Below are positions 32,687 through 40,978 of a stretch of 64,000 nucleotides of DNA, one piece after another. The stretch is from an uncultured delta proteobacterium (lineage in GTDB: Bacteria; Desulfobacterota; Binatia; Bin18), in the NCBI GenBank assembly GCA_963733195.1, contig CAVTCR010000001.1, positions 1-64,000 on the forward strand. Reading direction: 5' to 3'. A model generated the notes under the pieces. That model saw only the letters and a list, made by a program, of their open reading frames with translations. It ran no database searches and was not told the DNA's origin. The number at the start of each line of letters is the position of its first letter. The stretch's first letter is position 1. A program made the position numbers and the translations under genes.

Positions 32687-33157
32687 CTAAAGGCTTTTCG
32701 TCAGCAGCAAATGATACGCACGAAAACCATCATTGGTGTAGAGTTTCAGCGCACCAGTATTGTTGGCAAGGACTTCTAGCTGTATCTTCGTTGCGCCTAA
32801 CGAGCGGGCATACGCTTCAGCATGCTCAAGCAACGCCTGCCCTACCCTTTGTCGTCGATACGCTGGAAGTACGACTAAATCTGAGATGAAAGCATACTCC
32901 CCAGGCTCTTCGTCCAGTTCCTCAGACGGAACTTTTCCCCACACACAGACAAAACCAACAACTTGATGCTTCACCTCAGCCACAAACACCTTGCCGGAGG
33001 TCTCCGCGCAACGCGCCCACATGAAGTCAAAGTATTTCTTCGCGGCTTTGCCCTCCAACACGTTCGGTTCGAGTCTATGCAAGAAATCTTGCAACTCGAC
33101 AAAACAAGCTTCGACCTGCTGTGCATCCTCAGGCTGATACTCACGAATTACGGACAT
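32687..33157 (-). CDS. GNAT acetyltransferase
   Basis: ISDLVVLPAYRRQRVGQALL, LEVLANNTGALKLY..GF. Confidence 0.9.
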   Translation of the reverse strand: MSVIREYQPEDAQQVEACFVELQDFLHRLEPNVLEGKAAKKYFDFMWARCAETSGKVFVAEVKHQVVGFVCVWGKVPSEELDEEPGEYAFISDLVVLPAYRRQRVGQALLEHAEAYARSLGATKIQLEVLANNTGALKLYTNDGFRAYHLLLTKSL

Positions 33158-33268
33158 GGTTCTTCTCCTTGGGAAACTGAGATGTTACCGCGTGTACAAA
33201 GATCGTGAGATGTTCTTTACTTACGAGCAACTCGCGTGGACGTGCGTCATTGATCATTCAGCCCCCAG

Positions 33269-33572
33269 TCATACGGAGTGATGCGAGTAGCGCAGAAAAC
33301 CTTGTTTATCGATGAGGTAGATGGTCGGCCACGCCTGATTACCGTAGCGTGTCCAGATCGCAAAGTCATTGTCCGTCACCACTGCGTAGACAATCTGCTG
33401 GTCACGAACATAGCGTTCAAGGTTTTGGCTGGCGCGTTCCACCTCAGTTTCTGGTGTGTGCACGCCTATTATCACTAACCCTTGATCGGCGTACTTCTTG
33501 TGCCAGGTCTTCACGTAGGGCTCGACGTTGCAACAGTTGTAACACCCGAAGGTCCAGAACTCGACCAGTACC
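33269..33572 (-). pseudogene. TlpA/DipZ-like thioredoxin fragment
   Basis: VLVEFWTFGCYNCCNV..GLVIIGVHTPE..NQAWPTIYLIDKQG; lacks its N-terminus. Confidence 0.7.
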
Positions 33573-34056
33573 ATCGATGGAAGAGGGCCACCTCGGAAAC
33601 GCCGCGGACCGGCCCAAGTACACGGTGCTCGATCTCCCCGCGCCACGACAGGGGAGGTAGCTCCGGCAGCTCCTGGCCGCGGGGTAACCCAGGGACCCGC
33701 TCGTAGAGCCCTGGCACCACCCGAAGAGTCGCCTGTGGATACCGCGCGAGAAACCCAGGCACGTTCAGGTAGTGAAAGCTGTTGGGAACAAGAACTTCCT
33801 CGACGGCTCCGAGAGCCTCCACGCCTTCGAGTCCCCCTGCCTCGACCGGCGGCGGCGATACAACCAGGAGCGTGTCGGAGCGTAAACGAATCACGGTTGT
33901 GCGAGTTGGAAGACCGGGCCCGCTCGGCATGCGAAGACGACGCTCGAGCGACCAGAGATCCGCAGCGATCTGCGTGGGAGGCGGCGCGAAGCTGCTCACC
34001 AGCCGGGGCCTCACAAGCTGGATCAATCGATCCACGATCGATCGCCTCGCCTTCAT
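33573..34056 (-). pseudogene. DUF4336-like (metallo-beta-lactamase-like) cassette gene, 3'-truncated
   Basis: TRTTVIRL..LLVVSP..LVPNSFHYL..SEVALFHR, then joins the thioredoxin fragment; starts just after a degenerate attC. Confidence 0.65.
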
Positions 34057-34077
34057 GATGATCTCCCTTCCTAAGCG

Positions 34078-34128
34078 GCCTCACGCTCGCGGTGAGCGGC
34101 GCGCCTGCTCTCGAACGCGCTGTTAGAC
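34078..34128 (-). mobile_element. attC site (short, degenerate R')
   Basis: Minus strand GTCTAAC AGCGCGTTCGAG ... GCTCACCGCGAGC GTGAGGC; the gene stop TAA lies in R''; R' is GTG instead of GTT. Confidence 0.6.
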
Positions 34129-34593
34129 CGCCGATGACTCGCGGCCAAAGTAATACTGCCGCCACTGAGCCACAACCTCCTGTTCCATTGCTCCTTCATC
34201 ATAAGCTGGCGATATGAGCGGCTTCGCGGCTACCACCCCGATGACGACGATAGCCTTGATGCGGCGTGGCGCATCAGCAAGCTTGCGCTGGGTGAAGAAC
34301 GCGACCAATTCCTCGAAGATAGCTCCCTGCTCATGTACGACCGCAAGGCCTTTGAATCGGTACCCCTTGCGCCTGAAAGGATCCACGACGTTGACTTCAA
34401 TGTTTTGATTCGCTCGGAGATTGGCTACGGTGCCGGGCGAGCGAAGGTCGGCAAAGATCAGATGCTCATCATCCAAAACGCAGAGGGTGCCCTTGGGCGA
34501 GACGTTCGGGGTACCGTCCGGGCACACCGTGGCCACGAACCCTAAGCGCACCTGATCGATGACCTGCTTCATGTGCTGATTTAACACTCGCAT
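34123..34593 (-). CDS. Pyridoxamine 5'-phosphate oxidase-like FMN-binding protein (cassette)
   Basis: LGFVATVCPDGTPNVSPKG..TVANLRAN..RKGYRFKG; bounded by attC sites. Confidence 0.85.
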   Translation of the reverse strand: MRVLNQHMKQVIDQVRLGFVATVCPDGTPNVSPKGTLCVLDDEHLIFADLRSPGTVANLRANQNIEVNVVDPFRRKGYRFKGLAVVHEQGAIFEELVAFFTQRKLADAPRRIKAIVVIGVVAAKPLISPAYDEGAMEQEVVAQWRQYYFGRESSAV

Positions 34594-34618
34594 TCTTGCG
34601 TCTCCGTTATTCACCGCT

Positions 34619-34721
34619 GCCTAACGTTGCCCGCTCAGGGGGCGCGGCCTCTAACCGCGGCTGGTCATGTTTATTCAGAACCGCAAGAGGGGCCGCGTCG
34701 CCTGGAGCAGGGGTGTTAGGT
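34619..34721 (-). mobile_element. attC site
   Basis: Minus strand ACCTAAC ACCCCTGCTCCAGGCGACGCGGCCCC ... GAGGCCGCGCCCCCTGAGCGGGCAAC GTTAGGC: imperfect hairpin with RYYTAAC/GTTRRRY ends. Confidence 0.8.
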
Positions 34722-35745: not shown

Positions 35746-36691
35746 GAGTCCGTCCGAGAAGTTTAAGAGGGATTACAGAGTTTTCGCATCATCAGGCGAA
35801 TAGAGGCGAGCTGCACGAACGCCGTGGCAGTAGCGGGTGCGATTCTCGAAGTCCTTGGCCAAGCGCCGACAGCGATTGAGCCAGGCGATCGTCCGCTCCA
35901 CAATCCAGCGTTTGGGTAAGACCGACAAAGCCTGTGGCGCTGATCACTCCGTGTGACGATTTCCGGCTTGAGCTGCGGGCGAACTTTGGCCAAGGCCTTG
36001 GCGAAACAGCGGTCCTTGATAGGCCCCATCCGCAAACAGCTTGGCCAAGAAGCGGAAACCGGGCGCGCGAGCGCGGTGAGCAGCAAAATCCCTCCGTCGC
36101 GATCTTGCACGTTGGCCGGATGCACGATCGCATGCAGACAGGAGCCCCAGGGTATCCACTAACACGTGGCGCTTTTTCCCTTTGACCTGTTTGCCCGCGT
36201 CAAAGCCCGACGGATCAATCCGGCCCCCCCTTTTTCGGCGCTCTTCACACTCTGACTGTCGATGATACAAGCAGTCGGACTCGCCTGTCGCTCTGCTTGC
36301 TCCCGACACCTCACATAGAGTGCGGCATGAATCTCGCCTCAACGTGCCGTCCGCCTGCCAGCGCTCAAAGTAATCGAAGATGGTACTGCGCGGCGGGAAA
36401 TCTTTGTCGGAATCGCTCGCCACTGACATCCGGTGCTCAACACATACAACAAGCCCATTGAAGACTTCACGAATATTCACCGTCCGCTTGCGTCCGCCCC
36501 GTCGGGCAGGGGGAATCAGGGGGGCAATCTCGGTCCATTCCTCTTCGGTCACATCGCTGGGATAACGCAGCTGATCGCGGTTGTAGCGCGCGCGGTTCTC
36601 CATCGTCCACATGCACGGCTCCTCCTTAGACGCTGCCTCTCCTTAAATCACAACTCCCTCCTCTTTATTCAAGAACTTCCTAGACGGACTC
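35746..36691 (-). mobile_element. IS5-family (IS1031-like) element
   Basis: Transposase MWTMENRARY..YPSDVTEEEW..GKKRHVLVDTLG..FADGAYQG; imperfect IRs GAGTCCGTCCGAGAAGTT / AACTTCCTAGACGGACTC; no clear target duplication. Confidence 0.9.
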
Positions 36692-36696
36692 TAGCC

Positions 36697-36795
36697 ACCT
36701 AACGCTCGCGGTCACCGCGAGCTGCCCAAATGCGGCCTTTCACATGTATTCCAAACCGCAATAGGGCAGCGATGCGGTGGCGCGAAAGGTTAGCC
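36697..36795 (-). mobile_element. attC site
   Basis: Minus strand GGCTAAC CTTTCGCGCCACCGCATCGCTGCCC ... GGGCAGCTCGCGGTGACCGCGAGC GTTAGGT; the vapC stop lies in R''. Confidence 0.82.
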
Positions 36796-37161
36796 GTTTT
36801 CTGCTAAAGGATTGAGTAACTTGATTTCTTCAATCCAGTGGAAGTCATCAGTGTTACGAGTCACCAACGTCCGATCATAAGCTATGGCCGTGCTCGCGAT
36901 GATAGAATCCCCAAGACTCATCTTCCGCCGCTGCCGCAGCTTGACCGCCCACGGCACCACAGTCTCGGACAAGGGGAGTCTCTCTGCGGTTCGGAAAAAT
37001 TGCTCTAAGAATTGTCGATCGTCTTCCGTCAGTTTGTGGTAGCCCAGGACTTCGATATGGCTGATGACCGACACTGCCGGCGTATGCATTTCGATGAACT
37101 GGCGTAAGGCGGCATGCTCTGGCTGTGCCGCGTAGATGATGATGTTGCTATCCAGAAGCAT
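36790..37161 (-). CDS. vapC: PIN-domain VapC toxin (cassette)
   Basis: MLLDSNIIIY, EVLG, LGDSIIASTA, LVTRNTDDF. Confidence 0.9.
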   Translation of the reverse strand: MLLDSNIIIYAAQPEHAALRQFIEMHTPAVSVISHIEVLGYHKLTEDDRQFLEQFFRTAERLPLSETVVPWAVKLRQRRKMSLGDSIIASTAIAYDRTLVTRNTDDFHWIEEIKLLNPLAENG

Positions 37162-37421
37162 TACGCCTCCCGGTCGGGCAAGGCGCGCTCAGATCGCAGC
37201 TCTCGCTGCCAGGCGACCGGATCGGTGATATCGGCAAACGTGCCTCTGCGCGCAAGCTCCGCCAGAGCCTCCGCCATCGCTCGTCCCGCTTGGGCAGAAG
37301 TTCAGGAGTCAGGTTCCTCCAAGACCGTAATGTAGACCTGCACCGCGCTGGATTTCTCGGGGGGCTGTTCGAGCCACTCTACCTGATTATCATGGAGAAT
37401 CGCCTTATACGTGCGCAACAT
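37161..37421 (-). CDS. Putative antitoxin with one in-frame TGA
   Basis: MLRTYKAILHDNQVEWL..EEPDS*TSAQ..DPVAWQRELRSERALP; TAATG overlap with vapC; absent from the ORF track. Confidence 0.7.
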
Positions 37422-37509
37422 GCTACTGCTCCTCAACACGGCGTCCCGTCATTGTGTCAGTATTGTACCGCGTAAGGGTGAGAAAGTCTGCCAGCACGGT
37501 TAACGCTAA

Positions 37510-38848
37510 GTGCTCCCATTTCAGAATTAGTTGTAGGGTTTGCAGGTCTCGCGAGTCGACTACGAGAAGATGGGATAAGCGACAAACTCGAGAACAGGAG
37601 GCAAGGGAAATATATGTCAGGCCCTGTGCCATGGTATCGGCCCTGCTTTCCCACTCCCTTTGTTGAGGAAGCGCAAGGTCTTGTCCGGCAACGGACCGTC
37701 GCGTATCAACTGCGACAACGCGCGCAGTTAGTGGTGCTCTTGCAAGCTGATCCGCTGCTCTCCAACAGTCGCGCAGCGACAGCCGTGCAGCCTCCATCCT
37801 AACGCAGTGCGGTACTGGCGGCGACGCTGGGCGTTTGGGGAGTTCGGCTTGGCCGATGCGCCGGGGCGTGGACGGCAAGAGTCCGGATAATCCCCCCTGG
37901 AGCAGGCCCTCGTCAAAGCTGTAGCGTGTGAAGCGGTGCATCACAGCGGGTCTACCACTGAGTCGGCTCTCGACGGCCGATATTGCCGGGAAAGCCCGGC
38001 AAGCGTTAGGCAAAGCGATCAGTCCGAGCACGGTGTGGCGGATTTTAGCCGCCGATGCAATCAAACCCTGGCGGTACAAGTATTGGATCTTTCCCCGTGA
38101 TCCCCACTTTGCCGAGAAGGCGGGCCGGGTGTTGGATTTGTATGCGGGCTCCTGGCAAGGTCACGCCCTTGGCCCCAAGGACTACATCATCAGCGCCGAT
38201 GAAAAGACCAGTATCCAAGCGCGGCAGCGCTGCCATCCCAGTCTGCCTCCCGCGCCCTGGGCGTGTCAGCCGGGTCGAGCACGAGTACGAGCGCGGCGGC
38301 GCCTTGCAATACCTGGCCGCCTGGGATGTCCGCCGCGGGCTCGTCATGGGGCGGTGTGAACCGGCGACGGGCATTGAACCTTTCGGGCGCTTGGTCACGC
38401 AAGTGATGGAGCAAAAGCCTTACCAGTCGCGCCAGCGCGGGTCTTTTGGATGGTGGATAACGGGTCTTCCACCGGGGCGAGGCGGCCGTGCGCCGCTTGG
38501 CTCAGGCGTATGCCAATCTGATTGTCGTGCACACGCCGGTCCACGCCAGTTGGCTCAACCAAGTCGAAATTTACTTCTCGATCGGGCAACGCAAAGTCCT
38601 CACCCCCAACGACTTCGCCAGCTTGACAGAAGTCGAACAACGCTTGCCTCTCTATGAGCCCCTCTCGAACAGCCAGCCCCAGCCTTTTGCATGGAAGTTT
38701 ACCTGCGCCAAGTTAGAAGCACTGCTTGATCGCCTCCACACTCATGAGGCACTGACAAACACTTCCGCTGCCCCTCAATCGCCGCTGGACAGCAAGCCTC
38801 GCCAACTCCTAGCCGCCTAACCCTACAAACATTTCTGAAATGGAGCAC
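37510..38848 (+). mobile_element. IS630-family element inserted in an attC
   Basis: IRs GTGCTCCCATTTCAGAATTAGTTGTAGGGTT / AACCCTACAAACATTTCTGAAATGGAGCAC, flanked by TAA on both sides; transposase SADEKTSIQA, EYERGG, HTPVHASWLNQVEIYFS. Confidence 0.9.
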
Positions 38849-38938
38849 TAAGCCATTGAGCGGCCACGAGCAAGGCGGAACTCATCCCAGTGGTCGTGGC
38901 CGCTCCGCGCAGTGGTCCGCTCCAATGGCTGGTTGGAC
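38849..38938 (-). mobile_element. attC site, with its R' box displaced to 37498-37504 by IS630
   Basis: Minus strand GTCCAAC CAGCC ATTGGAGCGGACCAC ... GTGGCCGCTCAAT GGCT [IS] GC GTTAACC. Confidence 0.75.
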
Positions 38939-38959
38939 AAGCGACCAGCGGCGGTTGCT

Positions 38960-40156
38960 CATGGGGATTTGAACCTCCCCCTCAGGCGGCCACCGGCCAG
39001 GATCTCTACCCGCGGCGGAGCGCCCGCCTGCGGTAACACCTGAATCGACTATCAACGCCTTGCTGACAGACCGGACACTGTTCCCAGGGGTGGTTGGGGT
39101 GGGGCTGCTCTGTCGTGCGCCGCGGTGTCTTCCTGTCGTCTCCTCTCCGGCCGTTGCTCCGACCCTGCTCCAGCTTCGGCCGCTGCGCGCTGGCATACAA
39201 CCCCCACGCCCGCACCATATGGACGCCCGGCACCGGCACGTGCTCACTCCAGCGCCGGAGAAACTCCTCGACCGCTCACCGTCAGGTCGGCTTGCTGCGG
39301 CTGGCCCTGCTCATTGAGGTCCCGATGGTTCCCATAGCGAAAGGTCACCTGCTGCCCGTCGAAGCTGACCAAGCGGTGATCCTTGATCGGTCCGCCCCGG
39401 ACGTAGCGCGCGAGATATTTGATCACGCCCCGGCCCTGCGGGTAGCGTTCGGCGATGCGGATATTCCATTTCTGGCGGGCGGCATGGACCAATATCCGCC
39501 GCATGCCGTCGTCCTCGAGGCTGGGCGGTAACTGGAGGTGGCCTCTAGTCCATAACGCCTCGATCGCTCCCAGCACTTGGCCTCGGAATAACGCCCGCAC
39601 CACCGCCACCGGCAGCAGAAACCCCGTGCGCACCGCCAGCCACTGACCCTCGGCATCTAACCCGCCGCCACTCACTAAGCAGTGCACGTGCGGATGGAGC
39701 GTGAGCGTGCGGCCCCACGTGTGCAGCGCCGCCAAGATCCTGGGCGTGGCCCCTAGCCAGTGCGGATCGGCTAATAACGTCAATAAGGTTTCGCGCACAC
39801 TCCGGAACAACACCTCCGTCAGAGCGTGGCGATTCCAGCGCTACAGCGCATGCAATTCACTGGGCAAGGTGAAGATCACATGAAAGTGGTCAGTCGGCAG
39901 AAGCTGCTGCTGCCAGCCGTCGAGCCACTGGCTGATCCGGTGGGTACAGCAGCGCGGACACGCACGATGGCGGCACGAGTTATACCAGATCTCCGTGACG
40001 TGCCTCTGCGGGCAGTGGCGCACGTGCCCGCCCAACACCGCCGTGCGACAGGCCATCACGGCGCGTGCGGCCCGCCACACCCGGCGGGGCACCTTGTGCG
40101 TTTCAGCATACGCCGCAAAGCGCGTCTGGAGGATGTGCCGGTAACGTCACGGCCAT
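38960..40156 (-). CDS. IS91-family (Y2 HUH) transposase with zinc-binding domain (frameshifts; 3' end approximate)
   Basis: CRTAVLGGH..YNSCRHRACPRC, FHVIFTLP, LHTWGRTLTLHPHVHCLVSGGG, YLARYVRGGP, VRAWGL. Confidence 0.88.
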
Positions 40157-40210
40157 GATATTGTAACCTACAGTGACTTCACGTTCTGTTTGTGGACGCC
40201 TCGTCGCTAT

Positions 40211-40260
40211 GTCCAACTTTAATTGAACGACACTGGTTGTTCCTATTAACAGAAACATCT
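40211..40260 (-). mobile_element. Candidate attI site
   Basis: AT-rich stretch ending in GTTGGAC on the minus strand, the exact reverse complement of R'' GTCCAAC at 38932-38938; no attC hairpin upstream. Confidence 0.5.
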
Positions 40261-40330
40261 TCCTACGAATAGCCAGAACGGTCTACCGATAGCCACCTCT
40301 CTACGGCTATAGGTAGGAACATTCTCCTGG

Positions 40331-40630
40331 CTACATATAGGAACCTGCTGTGTTCACAATCCGCGCGGCCAGACCCAAAGAGACGACGCGATCATGCCGT
40401 AGGGACCATACCTGGTGCTGGGGAGGCCACGTCCCGCCTGCCGCTTTCACGCGGTGCCGCTCGGTTGCGGCGGAGCTCCACGGCTCTTCTTCAACGATGA
40501 CCTCGACCGTTTTGAGCCGTTTGCGCTGCTGATCATCATAGCGGGAGCGGACACAGACCAATTGTTCCCCATCCTGGGCCAAGAGTTTCTTTGCTTCGTC
40601 TTGCTGGGGCGGGCGGGTTTTCCGAATACG
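40331..40630 (-). pseudogene. Small hypothetical gene directly downstream of intI (probably decayed)
   Basis: KKLLAQDGEQLVCVRSRYDDQQRKRLKTVEVIVEE..RVKAAGGTWPPQHQVWSL; no clean start codon. Confidence 0.5.
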
Positions 40631-40641
40631 TCTAGGGCCGC

Positions 40642-40978
40642 CTAGAGTCGGTCGGCTGGGCTGCCGACGCCACGTCCGCCGCGCTTGAGAACGTGGGGGG
40701 AGATCATGGTCGTACGGACATCCCGAGGGCCGAGTAAGTCCTGAATCGTGCGAAGGTCAGAGCCCGCTTCCAAGCGGTATGTGGTAAACGAATGCCGCAA
40801 GAGGTGTGAAGTGACAGGCTTGGGGAGCCCAATCTTCCGGGCTGCTTCCTTTAGTGCACGTTGTGGAACCGATTCATACAGGTGATGACGACGTTAAACC
40901 CCCGAGCGCGGATCAACACTGATCTACGAGGCTGGGAATACCCATTGCCAGCCCCACTCGCGATCAGCGGTTGGATTT
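40642..40978 (-). pseudogene. intI: Integron integrase, C-terminal remnant
   Basis: Own translation: PTADREWGWQWVFPAS*ISVDPRSGV*RRHHLYESVPQRALKEAARKIGLPKPVTSHLLRHSFTTYRLEAGSDLRTIQDLLGPRDVRTTMISPHVLKRGGRGVGSPADRL. It has the IntI-specific insertion, two in-frame stops, and catalytic H and Y lost. Confidence 0.9.

Follow-up and report, generated by a model that had tools for sequence, protein, structure and literature searches.

Insertion sequences (IS) of the IS91 family, which includes IS91, IS801, IS1294, and the ISCR elements, carry sub-terminal palindromes and encode a transposase with an N-terminal zinc-binding domain and a Y2 HUH domain. To our knowledge, the ISCR elements adjoin class 1 integrons but do not reside there as cassettes. 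Here we describe a unit of this family in a 64,000-nucleotide stretch of DNA (hereafter called the window) from an uncultured delta proteobacterium (GenBank assembly GCA_963733195.1, contig CAVTCR010000001.1, positions 1 to 64,000). The unit shares the domains and the palindromes of the family, has a GTTN-type tetranucleotide at its left end and beside its right end, and shows no target duplication. It differs from the family in that its left end is an inverted copy of the heptamer that precedes its 3′ hairpin, its 3′ end has attC-like R″ and R′ boxes, and its copies lie at integron recombination sites. We somewhat favor the reading that a 1.37-kb IS91-family element of cassette-like build is present here as a dead copy, placed where a decayed integron would have its first cassette.

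Integrons need attC sites that are single-stranded and folded, and the cellular source of these substrates is still debated. Like an integron gene cassette, the unit begins with TTRRRY after a G, holds a single open reading frame (ORF) in the orientation of the array, and comes first after attI. It also shows the RYYYAAC...GTTRRRY arrangement, an imperfect palindrome, a bulged base, and a start complementary to its own R″ box. It departs from a cassette in that the gene it carries encodes a transposase and conserved IS end motifs lie inside it; in addition, its spacers are lopsided, the R-box pairing can reach ~14 bp in relatives, and IntI is only its putative mover. Elements of the IS1111-attC group (with a DEDD transposase) and group IIC-attC introns (with a reverse transcriptase) insert into attC sites, and the unit likewise appears as a mobile element specialized on integron recombination sites. 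However, it brings its own attC-like site and takes a cassette slot.

Several IS91 entries in ISfinder (ISAzo26, ISSod25, ISShvi3, ISWz1, and others) presumably have an upstream ORF labeled "phage integrase." This is the same two-gene layout that we find in a sister clade of the present unit (see below). Unlike those entries, the window element has no linked Xer-like gene; upstream of it, at a distance of ~490 nt and beyond an attI, there is a true IntI remnant. We know of no function assigned to the tyrosine recombinase of two-gene IS91 elements. The presence of ISShvi3 in a Shewanella integron is the subject of a single remark on one gammaproteobacterial locus, in a passage that holds no family-wide analysis of the ends (PMC9229058). 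In the portions of the full-text literature covered by our search, supplements (such as Figure S2 of PMC9229058) aside, cassette-like ends of IS91 elements are not described beyond this remark. Within the same full texts, again with supplements aside, we found no role for the linked recombinase of two-gene IS91 elements.

The transposase gene of the window occupies positions 38982 to 40157 on the minus strand, from an ATG at 40157-40155 to a stop codon at 38984-38982. The original prediction had placed an IS91-type Y2 transposase gene within 38849-40217, and Pfam searches with pieces of the window bear this out, giving matches to Zn_Tnp_IS91 (9.7e-26) and Y2_Tnp (5e-43). The sequences HPHVHCLV and KYLARYV are readable in the translation; the former (or its variant HPHIHCLV) corresponds to the HUH motif, and the latter contains the two catalytic tyrosines (YxxxY). 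Three-frame translation and comparison with an intact copy on contig C47 of the same genome, to which it is 65-67% identical with stops inside, establish that the gene is a pseudogene. The frame is shifted near codon 5 and again near 39270, and it is interrupted by an in-frame TAG at 39841-39843; the genome search counted four stops when the gene is read through. An open, uninterrupted frame is thus absent here and present in the C47 copy. The window copy is dead, a relic.

Along the minus strand, the parts follow one another as intI pseudogene, attI-like site, G|TTGGAC, a 53-nt leader, the Y2 HUH gene, AATCCCCAT, GTCCAAC, an imperfect hairpin, a spacer, G|TT, and the next cassette. The two heptamers lie nearly where they had been predicted. 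GTTGGAC, foreseen ~55 nt before the gene, is at 40211-40217 (minus), 53 nt upstream of the ATG, and is identified as the core of the attI junction by alignment of copies and by a change of context in soil contigs. GTCCAAC, expected after the gene, is at 38938-38932 (minus), 43 nt past the stop and directly before the imperfect hairpin. The unit begins with the last six bases of this core, TTGGAC, which complement GTCCAA of the R″ box. The leader (40158-40210, minus) contains a short palindrome, GGAC and GTCC separated by 13 nt, and among the three copies of the unit in this genome it is better conserved than the coding part. The 43 nt between the stop and R″ include AATCCCCAT, the window's form of a sub-terminal motif of this IS91 branch (TTCAAATCCCCAT, 38961-38973, minus) that has a small deletion in the window and reads TTGAATCCCCATAG in relatives. 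A sub-terminal motif of this kind is found 120-320 nt past the stop in 75 folded loci.

The attC-like site at the 3′ end is in two parts, because an IS630-like element has inserted into its 3′ spacer and splits the hairpin. The first part (38852-38938, minus) comprises R″ and the imperfect hairpin, which has one extra base in its 5′ arm, and is supported by compensatory changes and by folds. The IS630-like element (37510-38848, plus) is bounded by inverted repeats GTGCTCC... and by TAA at 37507-37509 and 38849-38851; its transposase is broken into three overlapping frames (37928-38359, 38055-38657, and 38488-38820). The last part of the site (37498-37506, minus), recognized by comparison with the copies on contigs C41 and C47, consists of the spacer end ...GC and the R′ box GTTAACC at 37504-37498, and the cassette after the unit starts with TTAACC. 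In the hairpin stem, paired changes among the three copies give CCATTG/CAATGG, CGGTTG/CAACCG, and CGATTG/GAATCG, and the bulged base lies on the R″/L″ arm (TTG-G-AGC vs. GCTCAA). The site ends with ...TATAC GTTAGGC in C41 and ...TATAC GTTATGC in C47, and the homology of the copies stops after GTTA. Relative to the consensus RYYYAAC/GTTRRRY, GTCCAAC and the GTTAGGC of C41 fit, whereas the GTTATGC of C47 and the GTTAACC of the window are each off at one position.

The heptamer GTTGGAC taken alone occurs at chance frequency in the window (nine matches vs. 7.3 expected), and the case for a unit therefore rests on comparison. The unit is present twice more in the genome with the same ends, at C41:8952-10352 (80% identity) and C47:66953-68364 (77%); the homology of attI-like repeats ends at its left border; and relatives at 40-49% protein identity have the same end design. 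Only the C47 copy is intact; its product is 389 residues long and contains HPHIHCLV and KYLARYV. Several frameshifts disrupt the C41 copy, such that two of the three copies are pseudogenes. Complementarity between TTGGAC and GTCCAA holds in all three genome copies and in a metagenome relative, L074. The units follow two different types of attI-like site: the window copy comes after the commoner type, and C41 and C47 have in common their upstream DNA and the second type.

The attI-like site of the window (40217-40343, minus) is a 127-base repeat with GTTCCTA/TAGGAAC-type motifs that ends with ...TTCAATTAAAG|TT and occurs in 11 copies in the genome. When these copies are aligned, homology extends to ...TTGAATTAAAGTT, is followed by GGAC, AGCC, GAAC, or CGGC, and then gives way to unrelated DNA. 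For the eight copies with other downstream DNA, homology with the window copy stops at ...AAAGTT. An end of homology at GTT is the behavior of an attI core, and the candidate attI proposed earlier is upheld by this 11-copy comparison.

Upstream of this site is an intI pseudogene (40645-40977, minus) of which the C-terminal third remains, with two in-frame stops and without the N-terminal part. The remnant matches positions 205-315 of TIGR02249 with 148 bits. It is 61% identical to a full-length IntI that this genome encodes on contig C33, whose own score of 477 bits exceeds the curated cut-off. Its translation retains the IntI-specific stretch EWGWQWVFPAS...RRHHLYES. Thus, an integrase with the IntI-specific extra domain adjoins the attI-like site, although it is truncated and has two stops, and the setting is a real but decayed integron. 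The ordinary cassettes of the array show the same property as the transposase unit, in that their first six bases complement their own R″ box (TTAGGT vs. ACCTAAC).

Relatives of the transposase were collected from 35 loci, found by a scan of genome contigs and of 401 genomes of the same phylum, and from 80 further metagenome loci. In the same-phylum scan, 39 of the 401 genomes, the source genome included, gave matches at E ≤ 1e-30. The tree computed from 111 complete transposases is split, with a Shimodaira-Hasegawa-like approximate likelihood-ratio test (SH-aLRT) value of 100, into a clade of 16 rows that includes the window's transposase and a sister clade of 95 rows. In the sister clade, a tyrosine recombinase gene lies directly upstream on the same strand in 85 rows, and eight more have too little flank; the two rows flagged as lacking the gene proved on inspection to have its coding sequence. 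In the window's clade, a linked integrase was found in none of the 16 rows; the upstream flank reaches 900 nt or more in nine of them and is too short in the other seven. The window unit itself has no Xer-like recombinase gene directly upstream. The linked recombinases are ~290 residues long and lack the IntI extra domain, and they are therefore Xer-like rather than IntI. Most relatives bring such a recombinase of their own in place of depending on an integron. An annotated example of the two-gene arrangement is present on pSHV1 of Sphingobium herbicidovorans, where the gene for a tyrosine-type recombinase precedes that for an IS91 family transposase.

Both clades share one end design, with a left heptamer complementary to the heptamer before the 3′ hairpin and an end at GTT. 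Pairs of copies in four genomes delimit the two-gene elements to 2.5-2.6 kb. They start with GTTGAAC or GTTCAAG and a GCCGC..GCGGC palindrome, continue with int, tnpA, and TTGAATCCCCATAG, and ~10-35 nt later reach ..CGGCTTC GTCCAAC (or GTTCAAC); after a hairpin of 60-90 nt and a spacer, for example TTTAAT, they finish at GTT(G/A). The left end of the two-gene elements thus repeats, in inverted orientation, the sequence that precedes the hairpin. Of the 53 loci with both the motif and an upstream flank of 100 nt or more, 28 have such an inverted 14-mer with no more than three mismatches. The heptamers covary between loci, as GTTGAAC/GTTCAAC (10 loci), GTTGGAC/GTCCAAC, GTTAAAT/ATTTAAC, and CTAGAAC/GTTCTAG. 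In the linear element these covarying heptamers are 1.3-2.5 kb apart, and only joining the element into a circle would bring them next to each other. Apart from lacking the recombinase gene, the window element follows the plan of the two-gene elements. The homologues have cassette-like ends and not the ordinary IS91 ends without attC association that would have spoken against the original prediction. The hairpin is an inherited part of this IS91 branch, not a borrowed attC.

Nineteen loci of the clade without an integrase have at least 149 nt of 5′ flank, and nine of these are in an integron-type 5′ context, namely after attI, after attC, or beside intI. Three follow an attI-like site and are the three copies of this genome. 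Five come directly after an attC-type hairpin (L074, L087, L088, L097, and L166; three recognized by scan and two by eye), and in one, L094, tnpA adjoins a divergent intI whose product is 57% identical to the IntI of this genome. The clearest case is L074, whose transposase is 40% identical to that of the window and lies between an attC ending with GTTGGAC and its own attC with R″ GTCCAAC. Its order is an attC ending with GCGTTGGAC, 59 nt, tnpA, CCCATAG, 16 nt, GTCCAAC, the hairpin, and GCGTTCGGC. Similarly, on plasmid pTBH10 of Thiolapillus brandeum a gene annotated as "IS91 family transposase" lies between canonical attCs. The 5′ attC is 60 nt long and ends with GTTGAAC, and the 3′ attC has R″ GTTCAAC, L″ GTTCAAGTGGCCG, L′ CGGCCACTTAAC, and R′ GTTAGAA.

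Environmental contigs provide a view of the junctions outside this genome. Contigs from four soil runs were placed on the C47 unit at 88% likeness; in the public runs at most 0.35 of the sampled words are present, and the material consists of assembled contigs only. In two runs a contig match begins at L003 1493 with dissimilar DNA before it, which corresponds to an end at GTTA on the gene strand. In all four runs contigs break at L003 2858-2864, which is GTCCAA|C of the 5′ junction. One soil contig retains the attI side and has other DNA after GTTG, and another retains the unit from TTGGAC and has other DNA ending with G before it. These breaks indicate that the unit meets different neighbors at both predicted junctions.

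We propose that the two ends of the unit would pair around the hairpin, in a circular or single-stranded form, much as in a folded attC, such that the joined ends would close the hairpin with an R-box-like helix. A tyrosine recombinase would then insert the unit at the GTT core. For the clade without an integrase this enzyme might be the IntI of the integron, and for the sister clade it might be the element's own recombinase; the Y2 transposase may supply the single-stranded circle. In CTX phage and other elements integrated by Xer recombinases, an HUH protein makes single-stranded circles, and a tyrosine recombinase integrates a folded hairpin; for the phage, the enzyme is the host XerCD and the target is dif. 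This serves as our working analogy for the int+tnpA clade, although we know of no demonstration for IS91 elements of an HUH-made circle with Xer integration. On the strength of the compared sequences, we lean slightly toward the view that the unit is a cassette-built IS91 element that was inserted by a tyrosine recombinase. The wider suggestion that the whole IS91 branch consists of "self-propelled cassettes," from which Y2 peels off a single-stranded circle with an attC-like fold that an Xer-like enzyme or IntI inserts at GTT, is offered tentatively and seems to us rather unlikely.

Several observations weigh against insertion of the unit as a cassette. Its spacers are lopsided, with 1-2 nt on one side and 5 nt on the other. 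In textbook attCs the extra base is a G, whereas the extra base here would be a C on the strand complementary to that of the gene. A covariance model (R1) was made from 11 attCs of this genome, all from one family that does not include the unit's own hairpin. It scores the C41 hairpin as borderline (17.7 bits, E 0.088), though over the entire site, in the correct strand orientation, and with the ends as drawn, and gives no match to the C47 hairpin up to E 10. An intI within 3 kb is missing for eight of the 11 attI-like sites, and 10 of the 19 loci without an integrase are not assigned to any context. Three metagenome copies, L086, L089, and L090, which end with ...GTGTTATC, show no integron features and have T, A, or G before TTGGAC. 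Moreover, C41 and C47 may represent a single insertion that was later duplicated, and no excision, integration, or circle was seen in the available material, which consists of assembled contigs and as such cannot show a circle.

An alternative is that the unit belongs to the ordinary IS91-type elements and moves solely by means of its own Y2 transposase, with the hairpin as oriIS, GTTG as terIS, and insertion 5′ of GTTN. Integron core sites (GTTRRRY) would then simply be good targets, and the resemblance to a cassette would be a by-product. As set out in part of PMC13181058, elements of this family have sub-terminal palindromes at both ends, a terIS tetranucleotide GTTC or CTCG, and a target GTTC, CTTG, or GTCC beside oriIS. 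With respect to these rules, the left end GTTG and the right flank, GTTA in the three genome copies and GTTC in L074, are compatible with oriIS and terIS, and ends of the form GTTG...hairpin|GTTA or |GTTC match. By the same rules, a classical IS91 insertion explains the junction just as well. A single base of the cut separates the two routes (|GTT vs. G|TT), and because both partners have the G, sequence cannot decide between them. That R″ starts with GTCC or GTTC, that the HUH and YxxxY motifs are intact in one copy, and that L086, L089, and L090 lie in non-integron contexts with noncanonical junctions also favor such an element. However, a four-base target would scatter the copies, yet all three copies here and nine of the 19 clade loci are at attI, attC, or intI. 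Likewise, the left heptamer covaries with one 1.3-2.5 kb away, as would be expected from their pairing in a joined form; IS91 is not known to need this. The tyrosine recombinase gene is kept in 85 of the 95 sister-clade rows. An ordinary IS91 element is possible, though on balance we find it the less likely of the two. The original prediction that the transposase is a cassette stands with regard to the first cassette position, the extent from G|TTGGAC to an attC-like site, and the recurrence of the same design in other genomes; as to whether it also travels as a cassette, the two routes compete as described.

There are two further explanations. The transposase could be a domesticated accessory of the integron, supplying for example single-stranded DNA for cassette exchange, inherited with intI-attI and not self-mobile. 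This would accommodate the first position after attI in all three copies, the common upstream platform DNA of C41 and C47, and the pairing with a tyrosine recombinase that is the rule in the sister clade. It is nonetheless very unlikely, given that two of the three copies are pseudogenes, eight of the 11 attI-like sites have other first cassettes, C33 has a complete intI without such a neighbor, relatives occur inside arrays after attC sites, and the contexts of both junctions differ in other samples. The remaining explanation, also raised in the original prediction, is that an IS91 element inserted into a small pre-existing cassette, such that the attC would be part of that older cassette and the ends would match by accident. 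Other elements, the IS630-like one and an IS5-family ORF, do sit within cassettes of this array. Yet the homology of the attI copies stops at GTT and the conserved leader begins at once, leaving no residual cassette DNA, and the hairpin, R″, and 5′ heptamer travel with the transposase both in relatives at 40-49% identity and in the integrase-linked clade. These facts contradict the small-cassette explanation, which we regard as the least probable of all.

The likeness between these IS ends and attC sites also extends to loci that could be mistaken for cassettes. At C66:43093-45707 there is a complete int+tnpA element, with an Xer-like recombinase and an apparently frameshifted tnpA, that starts at the GTT of an attI-like site. 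Its left end is G|TTGAAC GAAACCGC, and its right end is GTTCAAC AGGATTTAA...hairpin...GCGTTGGGC. The genome also appears to have a second attC family (GTTCAACAGGATTTAA...GCGTTRGGC), but six of its seven members (C15:5229-5355, C47:65372-65498, C48:3166-3290, C65:28869-28995, C66:43093-43217, and C77:26442-26564) are preceded by CCCCATAG and the sub-terminal repeat. Therefore, these six are right ends of int+tnpA IS91 elements. Software that finds attC sites would probably call them cassettes, and surveys of cassettes and of integrase-less attC clusters may accordingly be counting IS ends.

If cassette-like insertion is correct, it would give a possible function to the tyrosine recombinase of two-gene IS91 elements. 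A rolling-circle nuclease, an attC-like end, and a tyrosine recombinase or IntI as neighbor would together form a testable source of substrate and a new cassette route. The cassette-like ends throughout this IS91 branch hint at a mobile element able to use the integron's own route of insertion. On the tentative view of "self-propelled cassettes," the clade without an integrase would live on integrons as a parasite or serve them as a helper. A common origin of attC sites and these IS ends would then become a question, and attC-calling software would be counting IS ends as cassettes.

The array beyond the unit is of the ordinary kind. The next cassette (36697-37161, minus) has a gene for a PIN-domain toxin at 36793-37161 (Pfam PIN, 4.5e-12) and an attC at 36795-36697 that scores 100 bits with R1 and belongs to a family of ~100-nt attCs. 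A further attC of this family lies at 34619-34721 (minus), and its R″ box ACCTAAC complements TTAGGT at the start of its cassette. Both sites, 36795-36697 and 34721-34619, are among the seeds of R1. The intI remnant and the cassettes are oriented the same way, which we take to be the "inverted" layout of some phyla. An alignment of 21 mixed attC candidates made with MAFFT had a consensus structure consisting of the 7-bp R-box only and was dropped as a basis for the model. A scan for a strict attC pattern (RYYYAAC...GTTRRRY plus fold) was unspecific (108 candidates genome-wide) and insensitive (14 of 90 relative loci), and it served as a lead only.

Regarding the attI-like repeats, the eight without intI within 3 kb upstream are on C19, C66, C68, C24, C28, C63, C16, and C39, and most repeats without intI share only ~125-250 nt of upstream homology. 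The copy on C24 heads at least seven attC-like sites in 14 kb with no integrase. Downstream of the sole full-length intI, C33:19800-20009 has different repeats (GATATAC several times) together with GGTTAGGT, and these may be a second kind of attI.

The closest foreign relative, with 87% identity and the same 5′ leader, is at L039 2000-2622 on a contig labeled Deltaproteobacteria bacterium. There, tnpA ends after residue 155 and directly adjoins a member of the same hairpin family in inverted orientation (GCCTAAC...GTTAGGC), with ordinary-looking cassettes next. The region upstream was considered as an attI, but it has no significant match to the attI-like repeat of this genome (best E 0.2), and it was left uncounted.

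In the soil comparison, one contig has a single 74-nt skip. At L003 2603-2639, a 37-base piece of zinc-finger coding sequence has a summed contig depth of 22 to 42 in the four runs, with dissimilar DNA on both sides; the piece is a conserved coding motif common to many IS91 relatives.

Within the array of the window, a small gene upstream of the PIN gene (37161-37430, minus), seemingly split by a frameshift as judged by eye, presumably encodes the antitoxin of the PIN toxin. Between two attCs of the array lies an ORF for an IS5-family transposase (35947-36612, minus; DUF4096 and partial DDE_Tnp_1), which makes it a third IS type inside this array. Small cassette-like genes for PNPOx-like, thioredoxin-like, and GNAT acetyltransferase proteins (32690-34614, minus) are located past the last attC found by the model, and the array may therefore be longer than the model-found attCs show.

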